DNA from: Patescibacteria group bacterium
Lineage (GTDB): Bacteria > Patescibacteriota > Patescibacteriia > JAHJFT01
Direction: 5' to 3'
Length of the DNA: 64,000 nucleotides
Assembly: GCA_028710985.1 (NCBI GenBank)
Contig: JAQTTB010000001.1
Location: 231,397-295,396 of the forward strand
Part shown: positions 11,069 through 18,818 of the stretch, in pieces
How positions within the stretch are numbered: position 1 is the stretch's first letter
Layout: each line of letters starts with the position of its first letter
Translations under genes and position numbers: made by a program
The notes under the pieces: model-generated
Database searches by the model: none
What the model was told of the DNA's origin: nothing
Seen by the model: only the letters and a program-made list of their open reading frames with translations

Positions 11069-11129
11069 GGAGGAGTGGCCGACCCCGCGCAGCGGGGCCC
11101 TGCTTCGCGGGGGTGGCTGAAAGCGCCGC
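11069..11129 (+). pseudogene. degenerate tRNA-Ser 5' fragment (nt 1-14 plus a D-loop/anticodon-stem remnant) interrupted by a 32-bp GC hairpin
   Basis: GGAGGAGTGGCCGA is identical to the first 14 nt of the intact tRNA-Ser at 11387. GGCTGAAAGCGCCGC differs by 2 nt from GGTTGAAGGCGCCGC. The insertion ccccgcgcagcggggccctgcttcgcgggggt lies between them. Confidence 0.5.
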
Positions 11130-11139
11130 AATTATAAAA

Positions 11140-11385
11140 ATGTTCACAACCTATATCTTAAAAAGTTTAAAAAATGGTAAACATTACATTGGGCATACTA
11201 ATGATATGCCGGCGCGATTAGAACGGCATAACCAGGGAAGGGTTAAGTCAACAAAAAATGGACGCCCCTGGGAATTAATTTATTCAGAAATATTTAAAAC
11301 AAAATCGGAAGCTAATCGTCGGGAATTTGAAATAAAGAGTTATAAAGGCGGGATATTATTTAAAAAACTTTTCAAACTCATTTAA
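11140..11385 (+). CDS. GIY-YIG nuclease family protein (UPF0213-like)
   Basis: YILKSLKNGKHYIGHTNDMPARLERHNQG...KSEANRREFEIKSYKGG carries the GIY-YIG core with conserved Arg/Glu/Asn residues. The ORF ends 1 nt before the tRNA-Ser. Confidence 0.85.
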   Translation: MFTTYILKSLKNGKHYIGHTNDMPARLERHNQGRVKSTKNGRPWELIYSEIFKTKSEANRREFEIKSYKGGILFKKLFKLI

Positions 11386-11386
11386 C

Positions 11387-11476
11387 GGAGGAGTGGCCGA
11401 GTGGTTGAAGGCGCCGCTCTCGAAAAGCGGTATGCCCGAAAGGGTATCGTGAGTTCAAATCTCACCTCCTCCGCCA
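11387..11476 (+). tRNA. tRNA-Ser (anticodon CGA), long variable arm, CCA encoded
   Basis: GGAGGAG-TG-GCC-GAGTGGTTGAA-GGC-G-CCGCT-CTCGAAA-AGCGG-(18-nt variable arm)-GTGAG-TTCAAAT-CTCAC-CTCCTCC-G-CCA. Confidence 0.9.
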
Positions 11477-11487
11477 ACCAAAATATT

Positions 11488-11931
11488 ATGCAAATTTCAA
11501 AAAATGATGTCCAATACAATATATTGAATGAAGAATTTTTGCTTGCACAGCGGCAAATGGACAAATACGACCAGCTTTCAACTACCATTAAAACCTGGGC
11601 AGTTACGCTGTGGGTAGCCGCGTCCGGCTGGGTGTTCCAAACGGAAACGAAACAGGTCGCCCTCTTAGGAGCGCTGCTAGTACTCATCTTCTGGTTCTTT
11701 GACAGCTACAATAAAGTTTATCGTACCAACTACAAGAAACGCCGTGACGAAATCCAAAATGGCTTACAAATTCTTTTTTTCGGCCGTCCCTTACCCACGG
11801 ATTTTTTATCCCCCAACCTTCCGATTCATGACGAAAAAAATGTCGTTCGAAGCATGTTTCTTCTACACGTTGGATTGCCTTACGCAATACTTATCATCAT
11901 TTCACTTCTGATCTATGCTAATTTCAATTAA
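11488..11931 (+). CDS. small hypothetical membrane protein (3 predicted TM helices)
   Basis: The start is placed at MQISKNDV, just after the tRNA. The ORF-track version (11401) overlaps the tRNA. It is bounded by copies of the tRNA-Ser 3' end. Confidence 0.45.
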   Translation: MQISKNDVQYNILNEEFLLAQRQMDKYDQLSTTIKTWAVTLWVAASGWVFQTETKQVALLGALLVLIFWFFDSYNKVYRTNYKKRRDEIQNGLQILFFGRPLPTDFLSPNLPIHDEKNVVRSMFLLHVGLPYAILIIISLLIYANFN

Positions 11932-11954: not shown

Positions 11955-12033
11955 TCACCTCCTCCGCCAACCAAAATATTCAAAATTTTAAGTCGACGTA
12001 GCGGAGCGAAGTCGCTCTCACCTCCTCCGCCAA
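11955..12033 (+). repeat. two extra copies of the tRNA-Ser 3' end plus flank (att-like direct repeats)
   Basis: TCACCTCCTCCGCCAACCAAAATATT at 11955-11980 equals 11462-11487 (tRNA 3' end + CCA + 11 nt flank). A shorter copy, TCACCTCCTCCGCCAA, lies at 12018-12033. Confidence 0.75.
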
Positions 12034-12167
12034 ATTAACAAGTTAGAACCTAAGTAAAATAAGGGTATTTGGACAGCGAAAAGCCGATTTCGTCAGGAAG
12101 TCGGTTTTTTGTATTATTTTTTAACAGGGTGTACAATATAATCAATATATTTTAGTAAAGATAAATT

Positions 12168-12365
12168 ATGCCTACAATCAGTAAAAACATTCGCAAATTA
12201 AGAGAACAAAAAGGTATATCGCAAGATAGGCTTTCAAAACTGGCAAATATCTCTTTGAATACAATCGCAAAACTGGAACTCGACGAAACTCAAAATCCAA
12301 CCATTGAAACTTTGCAGAAAATTGCAAAAGCCCTAGATGTCAAAGTTGAGGATTTAATAAAATAA
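12168..12365 (+). CDS. XRE-family helix-turn-helix transcriptional regulator
   Basis: A 65-aa protein, IRKLREQKGISQDRLSKLANISLNTIAKLE, with a classic Cro/C1-type HTH. Confidence 0.75.
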   Translation: MPTISKNIRKLREQKGISQDRLSKLANISLNTIAKLELDETQNPTIETLQKIAKALDVKVEDLIK

Positions 12366-12369
12366 ATTT

Positions 12370-13488
12370 ATGGCCAGAGAAGCATCAATTAAAAATCTTA
12401 CAAATGCGAAAAGGGCAAAGAACGATGAGTTTTATACTCAGTACATCGATATTCAGAAAGAAATTGAAAAGTATTTAGATTACAACCCTAATACATTCCG
12501 AGCTAAGGTGGTGTATTGCAACTGCGACGATCCGTTCGAGAGCAATTTTTTTCGTTATTTTGTACTCAATTTCAACAAGCTTGGATTGCAACAGCTAATT
12601 ACAACGAGCTACAAACCATCGCCCGTCGCCAACACGCAACTGGGATTATTCGGTGATGACAAAACACTTGCAAAAACAAAAGGCCGTTCAAAGGTAACTG
12701 CCAATAAATTTATTATCAATGAAGTGAAAGATATAGACGGCGATGGAGAGTTCAATCTAAAAGATGTTGCCAAACAGTTAAAGGCAAACAAAAACAACGA
12801 ATGGATGCCCCTTGAGAAAGATGGTGACTTCAGAAGTCCCGAATGCATAGCATTACTGGAACAGTCTGATATCGCGGTAACCAATCCGCCGTTTAGTTTG
12901 TTTCGTGAGTATGTTAAACAACTTTTTGATTACCAAAAAAAGTTTTTGATTATTGGCAATATTAATTGCATAACTTACAAGGAGGTATTTCAAAAAATTA
13001 AAAATAATGAAATATGGCTTGGTAATGGAATGGGAAGATGGATTTCTGGTTTTATTGTACCTGAATCCTACAACTTGTACGGAACGGAGGCTCGGATAGA
13101 TGAAGATGGAAATAGAATTGTTGCCACCAATAATTGTTTGTGGCTTACCAATCTTGACCATGGTCGCCGTCACCAACCGTTGCCACTTATGACAATGAAA
13201 GAAAATTTGAAATACAGCAGACACAAAGAAATCAAAGGCAAAAAAGCGTATGAAAAATACGATAATTATGATGCGATAGAAGTATCTTTTACCGATGCGA
13301 TTCCAAGCGATTATAAAGGTGCAATGGGTGTGCCAATAAGTTTTTTGGATAAGTACAATCCTGAACAATTTGAGATATTAGGAATGGACGATCACAGGAT
13401 GCAATATCCTAATTGGAGAGGCAGAGGCCCTGACTTGAATGGAAAGCCCGCTTATAGAAGAGTTATCATCAGGCATAAGAAAAAATAA
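12370..13488 (+). CDS. N6-adenine DNA methyltransferase (NPPF motif IV; tentatively EcoRI-methylase-like family)
   Basis: DIAVTNPPF is the (D/N)PP(F/Y) catalytic motif. The N-terminal NDEFYTQ and [15 protein letters not shown] resemble the M.EcoRI family, but I am recalling this from memory and have not verified it. Confidence 0.75.
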
Positions 13489-13489
13489 T

Positions 13490-14659
13490 ATGAATACAAC
13501 TTTAAAAACCAATATCACTGTTAAAGAAATCTGCGACGGCTTTGTCTATAACGAACTTGAAGGCAAGGGTTTGTTTGGCTTGTCTGGCAAGCTCACTATT
13601 CAGCCGGAATATCAGCGAAATTATATTTATGCATCCGATGGCGGCAAAAGAGAGATGGCTGTAATTGAATCAGTCCTAAAAGAATATCCAATAGGATTGA
13701 TTTATTTCAATAAAGTTTCTACCGAAAACCTAGAAGTTTTAGACGGACAGCAACGCATCACAAGTCTCGGACGATTTATCACCGACAAATTTGCCATCAA
13801 GGACGAAAATGGCATGGAGCAATATTTTGGCGGTATGGCAAAAGACAAGCAAACCAAAATTTTGGAAACGAAACTTCTCATTTACGAGTGCGAGGGCACA
13901 GAAAGCCAGATAAAAGAATGGTTTAGGACCATAAATATTGCCGGCGTTCCGCTCAATAATCAAGAATTACTCAATGCCGTGTATTCTGGCCCATTCGTGA
14001 CTAGGGCTAAAGAGGAATTCAGTAATAGCCAAAACGCCAATATTCAAAAATGGAGTGCATATGTATCGGGTAGTGCAAACAGGCAGGAATTTTTGGAATG
14101 TGCTCTTGATTGGGTAAGCAGAGGCAATATCGGCGACTACATGAGCAAGCATCGCAAAGACAAAAACATCGATGTGTTGAAAAAATATTTCAACACAGTC
14201 ATTCATTGGGTATCTAGCGTATTTACCGATGTAGAAAGCGAAATGCGCGGGCTTAAATGGGGACGATTGTACGAGGAATATCACAAAGAGAAATATAATC
14301 CAACCAAAGTATCCGCTGAGGTGCGTGAGCTCTATGGTGACTTTTTTGTTAAAGATAAAAAGGGAATTTTTGAGTACATTTTAGGTGGTAAAAACGATAC
14401 AAAATTGCTTAATATTCACATTTTTGACGAACCAACTAAAAGAGCTATTTACGCAAAACAAACTAAGGAAGCTGAAACCAAAGAGAAATCAAACTGTCCA
14501 CATTGCGCTATTGGGCACGACGCTAATAAGGAAAAGATTTGGAGTTTCGGCGAAATGGAAGCGGATCATGTATCAGCGTGGAGCAAGAGTGGCGCGACTT
14601 CAGCGAAGAATTGTGAGATGTTGTGCAAAACCCACAATCGAGCGAAGGGAAATCGATAA
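13490..14659 (+). CDS. DUF262 (ParB-like, DGQQR) N-terminal domain fused to a C-terminal HNH (DUF1524-like) nuclease; GmrSD/SspE-like architecture
   Basis: [17 protein letters not shown] is the DUF262 signature. The C-terminus (CPHCAIGHD...[32 protein letters not shown]) is an HNH motif. The start is set at MNTTLK, 2 nt after the MTase stop. Confidence 0.8.
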
Positions 14660-14665
14660 AATAAT

Positions 14666-14860
14666 ATGGCAAATCAAACAGACAATAAAATAATGAGTGT
14701 GCCAGAGCAAATATTCGACCAGTTTCTAACGGAATTGGGAGAACAAAAAATACCGGAAGAAGTTATCGCTCGCTTAAGAAAAACTCTTGTAGACAATGGG
14801 CAGATCTCGGTTGATGCTCTCAAACAAGCATTGTTTTACAGTGATAGCACAGATGTATGA
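14666..14860 (+). CDS. small hypothetical protein (64 aa), translationally coupled to the downstream ATPase
   Basis: Its stop overlaps the ATG of the next gene (ATGA at 14857-14860). It is acidic with no known domain. Confidence 0.4.
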   Translation: MANQTDNKIMSVPEQIFDQFLTELGEQKIPEEVIARLRKTLVDNGQISVDALKQALFYSDSTDV

Positions 14861-17331
14861 TTAAGATTGACACAATAAAAATTGAAGAGTTTCGTGGCAT
14901 ACGCAACTTGACACTGGAGTTTAACGGAAAAAATTACGCTGTATGCGGACCAAACGGAACAGGTAAAAGTGGAGTGGTCGATGCTCTAGAGTTTGCTCTT
15001 ACAGGGAATATATCGCGCTTGTCTGGCGAAGGTATGGGTAATGTTTCCGTCAAAGAACACGCACCACATGTCGATAGTAAAAATAATCCCGAAAAAGCTC
15101 GCATAAACATTACATTTAAAATACCAACACTTGAAAATAAGCAAGTGACGCTCGCGAGGACAGTCAAAAATTCTACAACGCCAAGTATAAATCCATCATC
15201 ACCGGAAATACTTGAGATACTTTCACAATTTGATGGGCATCCTGAGTTTGTATTATCTCGACGCGAGATTATTCGGTATGTCATTTCAAAACCGGGCGAC
15301 AGATCAGCGGAAGTTCAGGCACTATTGCGTCTCGATAAAATTGGCGATTTACGGAGCAGTCTACTGACCATATCAAACACATACAGCAAAGAGTCAAAGG
15401 ATTCAAAAAAAGTTCAGGATCAAGCAAGCGAAAGTTTAGCACAAGGTTTGGAAATAACTGATTTGGTTAAAGCAAAGATTTTAGAAGCGGTAAATACAAG
15501 ACGCACTGTTCTCGGCTTAACGTCACTTACGGATTTAACAGCCACGACAGCTTTAAATGATGGATTAGAAACAAGTGTAAAATCTCCGGCTGTGCCGAAA
15601 GTGAATAAGGTTTCGGCAACAGCTGATCTAAAGACTTGGCGAGAGGTATCGCAAAAAATGACGGCTGAAAGTGTGCGGTCGGAGTGTTCAGAGTTGAAAG
15701 ATCAATTAACTGTTTTGAGTAGTAATCCTATTGTTACTGAGAGTGTAACGCGCGAGAAATTTTTACGCTCGGCGATAGATTTTGTAACGGAAGAAGCTTG
15801 TCCCGTTTGTGATACAAAATGGGACATATCTACATTGCAGGGTATTATCCGCTCGAAACTTGAAGGATTTGAAGAAATCACAAAGATGCGCGCTAGCCTT
15901 GAAAATCGGTTGGAACCAATTATAACTCTTGTCGACTCGCTTGATAACGCAACCGCTTTAGCTGAAAAATTAACGAAAGTCTTGACAACTGAACATACGG
16001 CAGGTCTTGCAGCTTATCGAGCAACATTATCGTCATACCGCAAGGCATTGAAAGATTTTTTGCCATTGACGGAAGCTATACCAGCAATTGTAAATATCAC
16101 AGAAATTCCTGCTGACGTAACATCTGCAATTGAAGCGATAGAAAAAGCTGTCGCAATTATTCCAGAGCCAACACAACAAGATGCGGCACGAGATTTTATT
16201 GTGCGAGCACAAGATCGCCTTGAGGCATACAGAAAAGTAGCTCGCGAAGCAGATAAGGCAAAGCAGCGGGCTGATTTATCAAAGAAGGTTTACGACACAT
16301 ATGTAGATATCAGCACCAAAGCGTTGGAGGGTGTTTATAAAGATGTAGAAGGCGAGTTCTCTAAACTGTATCGCTCGGTGAACGGCGAAGACGAGAATAG
16401 TTTTACAGCAAAGCTGGTTCCGTCTATTGGCAAATTAGGTTTTGATGTTGATTTTTATGGACGAGGGCATTTCCCTCCTGGCGCGTATCACAGTGAGGGA
16501 CACCAAGACGCGATGGGGCTTTGTTTGTATCTAGCACTAATGAGAAAACTCCAAGGCACTAATTTCAGATTTGCCGTACTCGACGATGTGCTCATGTCTG
16601 TTGATTCGAATCACCGCCGAGAAGTGTGTAATCTTCTTAAGCAACAATTTCAAGACACTCAATTTATCCTTACAACGCATGATGAAGTATGGTTAAAACA
16701 AATGACGACTGTTGGGCTTATCGCATCAGGAAACGCAACACGCTTTAGCAATTGGACTCCCGACCATGGTCCTGCGGAATGGAAAACGCGCGACGTGTGG
16801 ACTGAAATAGACACTGCTTTGAATGCAAACGATGTTCAATCAGCGGCCAGTCGCCTTCGGTATTATCTGGAGTATGTTTTTAGAGAAGTATGTGACAGCT
16901 TGCGAGCACAAGTTGAGTTTAAGGGTGATGGACGCTATGGGCTTGGGGATACCCTAGCTCCGGCCGTGGCACGCTTTCGTAAGCTTATGGTTGAAGGTAA
17001 AGAGGTTGCGGAATCACGGAGCCAAACTGATGTTGCAAAAGCTCTCCAATTGCAAGAAAAGAACCTTGCAGATTCTTTAGTCGCGACCAACGCTGAACAA
17101 TGGCAGGTTAATCCGGCTATTCACTATAACGAATGGGCGAATCTTTCGGTTAATGATTTTAATCCCGTGGTTGCTACTTTTCGTAATTTGGTGCAAAAAT
17201 TCTTTTGTGAAAAGCCAGAGTGTAGTAGTTTTGTATATTTAACTACGACGCCACCAAAAACGCCGGATGCAGTTCGCTGTAATTGTGGATTGATAAATAT
17301 AAACCTAAAGAAACCGGCGCAGAAAGATTAA
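14857..17331 (+). CDS. SMC/Rad50-like ABC ATPase (AAA_15/AAA_23-type head, long coiled coil, putative CxxC zinc hook)
   Basis: The N-terminal Walker A is GPNGTGKSGVVDALEFAL. The C-terminal Walker B and D-loop are FAVLDDVLMSVD and ILTTHDE. About 450 aa of predicted coiled coil lie between them, carrying CPVCDTKW near the middle. A C-terminal Cys cluster (CEKPECSS...VRCNCG) follows. Confidence 0.8.
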   Translation: MIKIDTIKIEEFRGIRNLTLEFNGKNYAVCGPNGTGKSGVVDALEFALTGNISRLSGEGMGNVSVKEHAPHVDSKNNPEKARINITFKIPTLENKQVTLARTVKNSTTPSINPSSPEILEILSQFDGHPEFVLSRREIIRYVISKPGDRSAEVQALLRLDKIGDLRSSLLTISNTYSKESKDSKKVQDQASESLAQGLEITDLVKAKILEAVNTRRTVLGLTSLTDLTATTALNDGLETSVKSPAVPKVNKVSATADLKTWREVSQKMTAESVRSECSELKDQLTVLSSNPIVTESVTREKFLRSAIDFVTEEACPVCDTKWDISTLQGIIRSKLEGFEEITKMRASLENRLEPIITLVDSLDNATALAEKLTKVLTTEHTAGLAAYRATLSSYRKALKDFLPLTEAIPAIVNITEIPADVTSAIEAIEKAVAIIPEPTQQDAARDFIVRAQDRLEAYRKVAREADKAKQRADLSKKVYDTYVDISTKALEGVYKDVEGEFSKLYRSVNGEDENSFTAKLVPSIGKLGFDVDFYGRGHFPPGAYHSEGHQDAMGLCLYLALMRKLQGTNFRFAVLDDVLMSVDSNHRREVCNLLKQQFQDTQFILTTHDEVWLKQMTTVGLIASGNATRFSNWTPDHGPAEWKTRDVWTEIDTALNANDVQSAASRLRYYLEYVFREVCDSLRAQVEFKGDGRYGLGDTLAPAVARFRKLMVEGKEVAESRSQTDVAKALQLQEKNLADSLVATNAEQWQVNPAIHYNEWANLSVNDFNPVVATFRNLVQKFFCEKPECSSFVYLTTTPPKTPDAVRCNCGLININLKKPAQKD

Positions 17332-17441
17332 ATCTGCTCGGATAAACCTAGCAATTGTTGTTTACTAAAAAGAGAGCCGCCCGCGTCAGCGGACGGGCTT
17401 GTATGCGCGCTAATAGGGATTTTATATAGAATAATCCACCT

Positions 17442-17615: not shown

Positions 17616-18101
17616 ATGTCAGATCAAGAAATTAAATCAACCGGCTGTTGCGAGCCGTTCAATCCCGAACCGTGGCATGAAAAAGAAATTGTCTGGAAAG
17701 ATAAAATTTTTGTCAAAGACTATGTTACGAGTTTTTTGCACATTCCGCTCAATATGGGGAAAAAAATCATAAAAAATATAGCGCTGATTGAAAAAGCCGG
17801 CGCTAAATCCCCGTATCAGCTCATGCTCTGCGACGAAAAATCTCTTTGGGGTTCTGACATTTATATTGATGTTGCGAAAGATGTCCCCGGCGCGCAGATG
17901 GCAAAAATTTCCGGCACTTTCCTAACGAAAGTTTTTGAAGGTCCGTATCAAAACGCCGGCAAATGGGCGGTTGAAATGAATGAATATGTGAAAAACAAAG
18001 ACAAAGAAATTAAAAAATTATATTTTTCTTACACCACCTGCCCAAAGTGCGCCAAGGCTTACGGCAAAAACTACGTGGTGCTCTTCGCGCAGATTGACTA
18101 A
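17616..18101 (+). CDS. hypothetical protein with N-terminal CC and C-terminal CPKC Cys pairs
   Basis: A 161-aa ORF with no confident family assignment. Confidence 0.5.
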   Translation: MSDQEIKSTGCCEPFNPEPWHEKEIVWKDKIFVKDYVTSFLHIPLNMGKKIIKNIALIEKAGAKSPYQLMLCDEKSLWGSDIYIDVAKDVPGAQMAKISGTFLTKVFEGPYQNAGKWAVEMNEYVKNKDKEIKKLYFSYTTCPKCAKAYGKNYVVLFAQID

Positions 18102-18182
18102 AGAACATACAGGACAGCATGCAAATGCAGGAATTTATTCGTCTTTTATCGGACGATTTTTTATTTGCGCTAAACCACGCCC

Positions 18183-18220
18183 TTGACAATATGTAAGGTA
18201 TACATTACAATAAGTAATGT
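18183..18220 (+). promoter_or_regulatory. sigma70-type promoter with an overlapping palindromic operator (ACATTAC-N5-GTAATGT)
   Basis: TTGACA, a 17-nt spacer, then TACAAT. The inverted repeat acattacAATAAgtaatgt overlaps the -10 and sits upstream of the DUF2178-XRE pair. Confidence 0.5.
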
Positions 18221-18238
18221 AAACTTAACTTAATCAAT

Positions 18239-18640
18239 ATGAACTACAAACAATTCAAAAGAATGCGCCTATTAACCGCCTCGTTTGTTTCGGCCACGGT
18301 GGCGATTGCGGTTGTTTATAATAACATTGTCTTGGCCCTGGCCGGAGTCGTAATCGGCCTGCTTTTTCTCCTCCTGGTCAGAAAAAAAACAAATGCGGTT
18401 ATAATTGACGAGAGAATTCAAAAAATTGGCGACCGCGCGGCTCGCCTTACTTACACGACTTTAACCCTCGCCACTGCTTTTCTTTCTTTGATTTTCATCG
18501 TGATCGGCCGGCGGATCGGCGAGGCAAATTACGAAACCCTGGGAATAATATTAAGTTATATTACCCTGTTCAGCCTTGCCCTTTATTCGCTTTCATACAA
18601 ATATTTCAGCAAAAAATATGGAGAAACAGACGACGAATAA
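18239..18640 (+). CDS. DUF2178-like small membrane protein (4 TM), usual partner of an XRE regulator
   Basis: A 133-aa protein with four hydrophobic helices, followed immediately by an HTH gene. This is a conserved two-gene arrangement. Confidence 0.55.
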   Translation: MNYKQFKRMRLLTASFVSATVAIAVVYNNIVLALAGVVIGLLFLLLVRKKTNAVIIDERIQKIGDRAARLTYTTLTLATAFLSLIFIVIGRRIGEANYETLGIILSYITLFSLALYSLSYKYFSKKYGETDDE

Positions 18641-18818
18641 AATTAAAGTTTTCCGAGCAATGCGCGAAATGACTCAGGAACAACTGGCTGATAAAGTTGG
18701 CGTTACTCGTCAAACCATAATCGCGATTGAAAAAAATAAATACGTTCCGTCCCTGGAGCTGGCATTTAAAATCGCCGGAGTTTTTGGCGAGACGATTGAG
18801 AACGTCTTTCAACGTTAA
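18618..18818 (+). CDS. XRE-family HTH transcriptional regulator
   Basis: MEKQTTNKIKVFRAMREMTQEQLADKVGVTRQTIIAIEKNKYVPSLELAFKIAGVF. The start is moved to the internal ATG. Confidence 0.8.
   Translation: MEKQTTNKIKVFRAMREMTQEQLADKVGVTRQTIIAIEKNKYVPSLELAFKIAGVFGETIENVFQR

Follow-up and report, generated by a model that had tools for sequence, protein, structure and literature searches.

A five-gene cluster beside tRNA-Ser in a Patescibacteria genome probably combines a Type II restriction–modification cassette with a separate two-gene Rad50-like ATPase module

Five genes beside a tRNA-Ser gene

We analysed a stretch of 64,000 nucleotides (nt) from a Patescibacteria group bacterium (assembly GCA_028710985.1, contig JAQTTB010000001.1, positions 231,397 to 295,396), referred to below as the window, in which five plus-strand genes at 12168-17331 bring together the parts of a DNA restriction–modification (RM) system and a Rad50-like ATPase. 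The first gene (12168-12365) encodes an XRE-type helix-turn-helix (HTH) protein of 65 amino acids (aa), matched by Pfam HTH_3 (E-value 8.6e-17) and by the PADLOC model Control_protein (3.1e-8). The second (12370-13488) encodes an EcoRI-family N6-adenine DNA methyltransferase (MTase) of 372 aa with an NPPF motif, whose residues 9-370 align with the complete Pfam EcoRI_methylase model (positions 1-345 of 345; 4.5e-127) and which also matches PADLOC MTase_II (1.8e-115). The product of the third gene (13490-14659) is an endonuclease in which a ParB-like DUF262 domain with a DGQQR motif (Pfam GmrSD_N, 6.6e-20) is joined to an HNH domain (1.5e-5); it aligns with the PADLOC restriction endonuclease model REase_II PDLC03418 over model positions 7-371 of 372 (3.9e-81). 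This protein most likely starts at M18, which gives it 389 aa, the length of nearly all of its homologs; an alternative ATG at 13439 would yield 406 aa. The fourth gene (14666-14860) encodes an acidic, helical protein of 64 aa that matches no library, and the fifth (14857-17331) a Rad50/SMC-like ATP-binding cassette (ABC) ATPase of 824 aa (SMC_N, 2.7e-22; AAA_23, 8.2e-18).

The five genes follow each other closely. The junction between the MTase and nuclease genes reads TAA-T-ATG, leaving a spacer of 1 nt, the nuclease stop codon and the ATG of the small open reading frame (ORF) are 6 nt apart, and the small ORF shares an ATGA overlap with the start of the ATPase gene. A first-pass annotation of the window, made by a model from the sequence alone, had described five co-directional, tightly packed genes, and all five ORFs were found where it had placed them. 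Its ATGA overlap can be read directly in the sequence, and its domain calls for the HTH protein and the MTase agree with the Pfam and PADLOC matches. The tight MTase/nuclease junction and the DUF262 (DGQQR) and HNH assignments likewise stand, with two corrections: the spacer measures 1 nt instead of 2, and the nuclease most likely has 389 aa instead of 406. The genes probably form one co-transcribed array beside the tRNA-Ser gene; we infer the operon from spacing alone, because a promoter scan returned 15 matches against 13.8 expected and thus did not exceed chance.

The nuclease and ATPase genes in other genomes

Relatives of the ATPase were sought in 185,579 species genomes (one genome per species), which yielded 346 of them, and 80 loci, drawn from many phyla, were kept. 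The nuclease was followed in 80 metagenome loci (L097-L176), 71 of which had enough sequence to be evaluated upstream and 40 of which extended at least 2.8 kb downstream. In this collection, the MTase gene lies directly 5' of the nuclease gene in 69 of 71 loci, and the small ORF and ATPase gene lie 3' of it in none of 40. When the 80 ATPase loci were searched by tblastn, neither the window MTase nor the DUF262-HNH nuclease was found beside the ATPase (0/80 each), the sole exception being one weak DUF262-HNH match (1.8e-4) in locus L007, which lies downstream, elsewhere in the locus.

It is the small ORF that accompanies the ATPase gene. By tblastn, it was detected directly 5' of the ATPase gene in at least 44 of the 80 loci, and an iterated hidden Markov model (HMM) recovered it in 73, 67 of these with the identical 4-nt overlap. 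Four of the seven loci missed by the HMM carry a recognisable small-ORF homolog, and in the remaining three either the contig breaks off or the ATPase itself is truncated. With manual inspection included, each of the 77 loci that can be evaluated thus has the small ORF. No third conserved partner emerged: after clustering of the 778 neighbouring proteins, no family occurred in more than 9 of the 80 loci, and the largest cluster consisted of large serine recombinases, the rest being RM subunits.

We consider it likely that two units, each mobile in its own right, lie side by side in the cluster: a Type II RM cassette and a two-gene module made up of the small protein and the ATPase. Judged from these gene neighbourhoods, the two units are evolutionarily independent, and the small protein and ATPase constitute an obligate, translationally coupled unit.

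The first-pass annotation had instead read the genes as one module, similar to Lamassu or Septu, in which the DUF262-HNH protein would be the effector. In its fullest form, this explanation makes the five genes one Lamassu-, Septu- or Menshen-like system in which DUF262-HNH is the effector, the 64-aa protein is LmuC-like, the ATPase is an LmuB and the methylase provides self-protection. With Lamassu (LmuA-LmuC-LmuB, DdmABC, ABC-3C), the cluster shares a Rad50-related hook ATPase, a small-protein gene just upstream and likely DNA-end sensing. The tightly spaced order nuclease, small protein, SMC-like ATPase mimics LmuA-LmuC-LmuB, PADLOC LmuB matches part of the ATPase (1.1e-26, aa 153-610), and LmuB has a zinc hook, at which LmuC binds. 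However, no LmuA effector is conserved beside the ATPase in the 80 loci, where only the 64-aa ORF is; the small protein matches none of the PADLOC LmuC models even at E <= 10; and the ATPase has its own C-terminal domain and a head structurally nearer to Rad50/SMC than to LmuB.

The other two systems fare no better. Septu also combines an ABC ATPase with an HNH nuclease, but here the two are not evolutionarily linked: the PtuB HNH partner is absent beside the ATPase in other loci, and no HNH gene is conserved next to it in the 80 loci. The PtuA matches in the N-terminal P-loop region cover mainly the first ~110 residues, with weak matches to the C-lobe, and the NCBIfam PtuA model scores 39 against a cut-off of 500 bits. 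Menshen comprises NsnA (DUF262 plus ParBDB), NsnB (an OLD-type ABC ATPase with DUF3696 and no coiled coil) and a downstream effector, NsnC (PMC12065111). DUF262 and ABC ATPase domains occur in both arrangements, and the NsnA model does match the DUF262 domain of the nuclease (2.7e-25); the ATPase described here, however, has a long coiled coil and no DUF3696, and no NsnC-like gene lies downstream in the window.

With the nuclease a full-length match to a Type II model, paired with an MTase and never seen with the ATPase in either survey, we rejected the integrated Lamassu, Septu or Menshen reading on co-occurrence and on the defining features of each system; its chance of being correct is minimal. 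The triad of nuclease, small protein and ATPase that the first-pass annotation had proposed to survey shows no co-occurrence in the 80 ATPase loci or the 40 nuclease loci surveyed, and what was found is the outcome that it had itself set against its reading, a nuclease that is the restriction subunit of a Type II pair with the ATPase unlinked. The Lamassu-like gene order in the window arose purely from two units placed side by side.

The Type II restriction–modification cassette

The regular pairing of methylase and nuclease, the absence of the ATPase from downstream positions and the full-length REase_II match therefore assign genes 1-3, on sequence grounds, to a Type II cassette of controller, methylase and endonuclease (C-M-R). 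The 65-aa HTH protein is probably the controller (C) protein: a homologous HTH gene precedes the MTase gene in loci L086 and L087 and in 11 of 63 metagenome loci. In L081-L091, which represent three independent contexts, the nuclease gene directly follows an EcoRI-family methylase gene, sometimes with an HTH gene upstream, and the genes 3' of the nuclease differ by context (DUF5655, UvrD helicase and unknowns). The window cassette thus resembles Type II RM systems with a controller in its C-M-R order, its spacers of 1-4 nt, its full-length EcoRI-family MTase and an R protein that matches a REBASE-derived Type II endonuclease model over its full length. The DUF262-HNH endonuclease would cut unmethylated DNA.

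Enzymes assigned to Type II do not usually carry a ParB-like NTPase-type domain such as the one in this nuclease. The nuclease shares its N-terminal GmrSD/ParB-like DUF262 domain with GmrSD, a modification-dependent Type IV enzyme; unlike GmrSD, it has a classical HNH domain (PF01844) and not DUF1524, and its gene is strictly paired with a methylase gene. The cassette is ordinary in kind, with an unusual ParB-like-HNH nuclease whose conservation is extreme. The nuclease has more than 8000 homologs. Each of the best 120 clusters (at 90% identity) shares 86% identity or more with the window protein, and these clusters come from Staskawicz-, Yanofsky-, Curtiss-, Magasanik-, Andersen- and Taylorbacteria, Kazan and one actinobacterial metagenome-assembled genome (MAG). 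A metagenome scan for the nuclease returned at least 600 matching stretches, and 584 of the 600 listed encode a relative. This sequence record suggests that the MTase/DUF262-HNH cassette has spread recently and rampantly by horizontal transfer among bacteria of the candidate phyla radiation.

The 64-kb window shows no depletion of GAATTC (26 observed, 20.5 expected), which suggests that the EcoRI-family cassette either has a specificity other than GAATTC or arrived recently. As a separate observation, TCGA is strongly under-represented in the window (141 observed, 257 expected; z = -7.2), and GGCC (z = -4.6) and GATC (z = -3.7) are depleted as well, a pattern that may reflect a long history of contact with RM systems that recognise TCGA, GGCC or GATC.

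The small protein and the ATPase

Members of the small-protein family are typically ~64-69 aa long, helical and acidic (net charge ~-4.4), are almost free of Cys, His and Trp, and share the core VPxxxFxxFLxxL...RLRKxL...ALKxALF. The family comprises 137 clusters of 50-107 aa, all of them stand-alone proteins without a Pfam domain, and no Pfam, PADLOC, PHROG or NCBIfam match was found for the window protein.

The ATPase belongs to a family of ~820-aa proteins with 1345 clusters at E <= 1e-5 and about 50% identity, distributed over Patescibacteria, Bacteroidota, Proteobacteria, Actinobacteria, Spirochaetes and others. Its AlphaFold2 (AF2) model, with a predicted local distance difference test score (pLDDT) of 82, shows the N-lobe of an ABC head, an antiparallel coiled coil of ~350 residues and the C-lobe of the head, which extends to residue ~641. 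These are followed by a helical domain (647-780) and a small beta zinc ribbon. The Walker A motif GPNGTGKS (G31-S38; 14947-14970, plus strand) occupies invariant columns of a 95-sequence alignment, and the zinc hook C315-P-V-C318 (15799-15810, plus strand) sits at the tip of the coiled coil, with C315, P316 and C318 invariant; in the model, short bridging strands at 314 and 321 connect the two long helical arms around it. Besides Walker A and the CPxC hook, Q154, S546-G548, D576-D577, H608 and four C-terminal cysteines are invariant or nearly so. The Walker B motif reads hhhhDD (D576-D577) and not the usual hhhhDE, and it is invariant in the family; we take it to resemble that of RecF, and an enzyme with this motif may hydrolyse ATP slowly or work as a switch and not as a motor. 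The catalytic motifs are thus intact, in a protein that combines a Rad50-type head and hook with a private C-terminal domain. In agreement, the first-pass annotation of a Rad50/SMC-like ATPase with a CPVC hook and a C-terminal Cys cluster is upheld by Pfam, by the alignment and by the AF2 model.

The C-terminal domain (aa 640-824; 16774-17328, plus strand) consists of a helical bundle and a four-Cys zinc ribbon (C784, C789, C808, C810). Its invariant residues are R668, E672, D691, W749, N752, H756 and W760; R668-x3-E672 is located in the first long helix, and the loop W749-Q-x-N752-P-x-x-H756-x-N-x-W760 ends the penultimate helix, where HEPN domains carry Rx4-6H. No match to this domain was found in Pfam, PADLOC, PHROGs, NCBIfam or PDB sequences, and Foldseek against the PDB was uninformative. 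When its profile was run against 1.84 billion representatives, 823 representative clusters were recovered, and the best 150 of these have the same ~820-aa architecture or are fragments that start at a conserved internal M616. Among these best 150 matches, the domain therefore appears specific to the ATPase family.

We also considered a housekeeping role in DNA repair, with the ATPase as an SbcC-, RecN- or RecF-type protein whose gene happens to lie beside an RM cassette. Its fold is that of Rad50/SMC/SbcC/RecF proteins, its RecF-like DD Walker B motif would fit such a role, source annotations call it 'RecF' or 'SbcCD ATPase subunit', and the Prokaryotic Genome Annotation Pipeline (PGAP) attaches the Gene Ontology term double-strand break repair. 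All NCBIfam equivalogs nevertheless stay far below their cut-offs (RecF 45 versus 172 bits, Rad50 41 versus 1000, RecN 18 versus 408, SbcC 17 versus 478), and SbcD/Mre11 is not a conserved neighbour, a metallophosphoesterase being found in only 2 of 78 operonic neighbours. The distribution is patchy, as the 346 relatives among all species genomes illustrate, and the genes are plasmid-borne and flanked by RM genes, recombinases and insertion sequence elements. Compared with Rad50/Mre11 and SbcCD, the family thus lacks the Mre11/SbcD partner, has an extra C-terminal domain and shorter coiled coils, and is sporadic and mobile. A housekeeping function, which the first-pass annotation had named as an outcome that would refute its reading, is very improbable and the least likely of the remaining alternatives for the pair.

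Genomic contexts of the pair

The pair recurs next to RM systems of several types. In L004 and L005, it lies inside a Type I operon in the order RadC-HsdR-HsdM-[small+ATPase]-HsdS, and in L006, L007, L012 and L016, it follows the res gene of a Type III mod-res system by 5-20 nt. In L095, an 88%-identical relative is found 2 nt after another Type II system, composed of a D12-class MTase, an AlwI-type endonuclease and an N4/N6 MTase. We further noted that the hsd operons of L004 (1845-12905) and L005 (58-9157) are preceded by RadC-like JAB genes, and that of L005 also by an HTH gene whose product is 58% identical to the window controller protein; RadC recurs with RM genes in these two loci and is fused to the D12 MTase in L095.

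The pair occurs in other settings too. In L003 (6983-13204) and L096 (3824-10043), where the ATPases are 74-75% identical, the pair is placed between a Ymh (HEPN-family) gene and a superfamily 1 (SF1) helicase gene; this recurrent four-gene arrangement may represent a distinct composite system. The Ymh gene appears split or frameshifted in both loci, of which L003 stems from a Saccharibacteria MAG. Further immediate neighbours encode PIN, Schlafen/AlbA_2, AAA_27 with a metallophosphoesterase and a giant DUF4011 helicase-nuclease, and large serine recombinases flank the pair in 9 loci. The pair is also found on 41 plasmids, 10 of them conjugative, where it is annotated only as 'AAA family ATPase' and 'hypothetical protein', and in L093 it adjoins type IV secretion system (T4SS) genes. 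In three Legionella pneumophila loci (L177-L179, 5820-9648), the small protein and an 817-aa ATPase directly follow the genes for a single-stranded DNA-binding protein (SSB) and ArdA. Integrase genes lie upstream in all three, and in L177 a MobA/TraI relaxase gene is found a few kb downstream; this setting is reminiscent of a conjugative element's leading region.

The pair has thus become attached repeatedly, but non-specifically, to Type I, II, IIS and III RM systems and behaves as a mobile conflict-system module. The first-pass annotation had offered ATPase-assisted restriction as an alternative, which holds up in a weaker form: the attachment to RM operons of four types points to a generic link with restriction and not to a partnership specific to this nuclease.

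Composition and surroundings of the cluster

The tRNA-Ser(CGA) gene upstream of the cluster (11387-11476, plus strand; identified by ARAGORN; Rfam tRNA, 60.7 bits) is a probable integration target. Three direct copies of its 3' end are present on the plus strand (11462-11487, 11955-11980 and 12018-12043), and the 16-mer TCACCTCCTCCGCCAA from this end occurs 3 times where 0.05 occurrences are expected, a count reached in 0 of 100 shuffles. In sequence, the copies look like att-like scars of integration events. The first-pass annotation had reported them together with the tRNA gene, and both are present; all three copies lie upstream, so that the cluster is not bracketed, and a search for an att repeat 3' of the cluster found none, which leaves the right-hand boundary of the island without a repeat marker. 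The GC content is 0.36-0.45 across ~11.5-18.5 kb and ~0.47-0.57 in the flanks; the cluster is thus poorer in GC than its surroundings, as had been proposed, and the low-GC tract reaches beyond the five genes to ~18.5 kb. Horizontal acquisition of the cluster, suggested earlier, is plausible.

Two hairpins, each identified by consensus match only, lie at the edges of the array. A terminator-like hairpin upstream of the HTH gene (12076-12112, plus strand), with a 16-pair stem followed by ATTATTTTTT, probably insulates the cluster from upstream transcription. A GC-rich hairpin 3' of the ATPase stop codon (17377-17396, no strand assigned), which has a T-run on the minus strand, likely marks the end of the transcription unit and may work in both directions. 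Between the upstream hairpin and the HTH gene, an AT-rich inverted repeat, AATATA-N5-TATATT (12137-12153), spotted by eye and of low complexity, stands ~15-30 nt 5' of the HTH start, where the operator of a controller protein (C-box) would be expected.

Several further genes are found nearby. An ORF of ~147 aa (MQISKNDVQ...; 11489-11931) fits exactly between the tRNA-Ser 3' end and the first perfect 26-nt repeat (11955); its hydrophobic stretches suggest a membrane protein, it has no Pfam match (scanned as a longer 176-aa ORF), and it could be what is left of a very small integrated element between att-like repeats. Immediately upstream of the tRNA-Ser gene, and ending 1 nt before it, a 90-aa ORF (11113-11385) encodes a stand-alone GIY-YIG nuclease domain (1e-16); small GIY-YIG genes beside tRNAs can be homing-endonuclease-like mobile elements. 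On the other side, the still low-GC stretch 17616-18818 carries a Bact_hydrolase (PF20603) gene, followed by a gene for a DUF2178 membrane protein that overlaps an XRE-type HTH gene, and these genes may belong to the same acquired region.

Possible role of the small-protein/ATPase pair

We regard the pair as a candidate for an uncharacterised conflict module, best described within the Rad50-like ABC ATPase conflict systems. It has no name in Pfam, PADLOC 2023, PHROGs or NCBIfam 2026, although a description under another name is possible. Its most likely mechanism can be proposed by analogy with Rad50, SbcC and LmuB biology and with the RloC/PrrC precedent. The ATPase would dimerise via its zinc hook and ATP-engaged heads, and the dimer would sense DNA ends or breaks, as Rad50, SbcC and LmuB do. 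ATP-driven head engagement would then pass the signal to the C-terminal helical/zinc-ribbon domain. This domain could serve as an output domain that binds nucleic acid or, following the RloC/PrrC example, could be a nuclease of a non-canonical HEPN-like kind, and the small acidic protein would restrain the complex or serve as an adaptor. Since the RM systems beside the pair are of different types, a signal common to all of them is more plausible than a specific partnership; it could be restriction-generated DNA ends or the failure of restriction, and the pair would form a second-line or abortive defence layer rather than the partner of one nuclease.

A bolder reading, to which we assign a probability of roughly 0.3, is that the pair represents a two-gene immune module, widespread and so far undescribed, that serves as a back-up to restriction of any type: on encountering DNA ends, or restriction that has stalled or failed, a hook dimer would activate a new C-terminal effector (a non-canonical HEPN-like bundle with the Trp/Asn/His loop and the zinc ribbon), with the small protein as a built-in inhibitor or adaptor.

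Several observations weigh against such functions of the pair. Members of the HEPN superfamily carry Rx4-6H where helix 3 ends (PMC3710099), and the C-terminal domain lacks this motif, the W749-H756 loop containing no Arg; a HEPN-like nuclease is possible, and three invariant Trp residues with an Asn/His loop could equally fit a binding pocket instead of an active site. H756, the only invariant His, follows R668-x3-E672 at a distance of 83 residues, compared with 36-52 in RloC, and the PADLOC PrrC model matches the C-lobe of the ATPase only (E 0.003). In terms of context, about 80% of the pair loci have no RM gene adjoining the pair, no ATPase homolog was found in phage records, and the ArdA/SSB setting near a relaxase gene would also fit establishment of a mobile element or the countering of host defence. 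Finally, the gap to the nuclease gene is only 6 nt, so the two units may cooperate at this locus.

The comparison with RloC leads to a related explanation, in which the ATPase is a divergent RloC family member whose C-terminal HEPN anticodon nuclease cuts tRNA upon DNA damage or failed restriction. RloC, which has PrrC as a shorter relative, is the closest counterpart of the ATPase in architecture and context. Both have an ABC head with the coiled-coil/CxxC zinc-hook insert that RloC requires, placed near residue 300 of a protein of ~800 aa, and both end in a helical domain, which is the effector in RloC; an invariant R-x3-E and a later invariant His are found in this part of the ATPase. As prrC and rloC do, the pair occasionally sits inside Type I hsd operons ('restriction-linked ORF') and shows occasional linkage to anti-restriction genes. 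The RloC/PrrC anticodon nuclease triad is given as Arg-x3-Glu-x36-52-His (PMC2610378), and the resemblance of R668-x3-E672...H756 to it is suggestive only: besides the spacing mismatch, no conserved His is found 36-52 residues after R-x3-E in the 95-sequence alignment. A weak Pfam AAA_13 match (23.5 bits against a cut-off of 36 bits) ends at model position 579 of 713, before the nuclease part, and Foldseek gave no support for RloC membership. The missing Rx4-6H motif and the limited PrrC match count here as well. Moreover, the ATPase has an extra four-Cys zinc ribbon and a translationally coupled 64-aa partner, and the RloC excerpts considered mention neither a terminal zinc ribbon nor an obligate small partner. 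Membership in the RloC family is thus unlikely.

A role in the service of mobile elements, either as an addiction (toxin-antitoxin-like) module or in establishment or anti-defence through protection of incoming DNA ends, is about as improbable as RloC membership. The plasmid-borne copies, the T4SS genes and the flanking serine recombinases point in this direction, as does the Legionella arrangement with SSB, ArdA, integrase and relaxase genes, and the gene layout, in which the reading frame of a small acidic protein overlaps that of its partner by 4 nt, recalls antitoxin/toxin modules. Defence cargo is, however, also common on mobile elements, so that these contexts do not discriminate; the pair has no recognisable toxin domain, and its recurrence within host-type RM operons or at their 3' ends is better explained by a defence accessory.

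The window illustrates that defence genes packed closely together in a single genome need not form one system. The small-protein/ATPase pair spans many phyla, plasmids and pathogens, including Legionella pneumophila and Leptospira interrogans. If it does act as a generic back-up of restriction, the idea that PrrC and RloC guard the restriction system would come to include another protein family, with an effector domain of a new kind.

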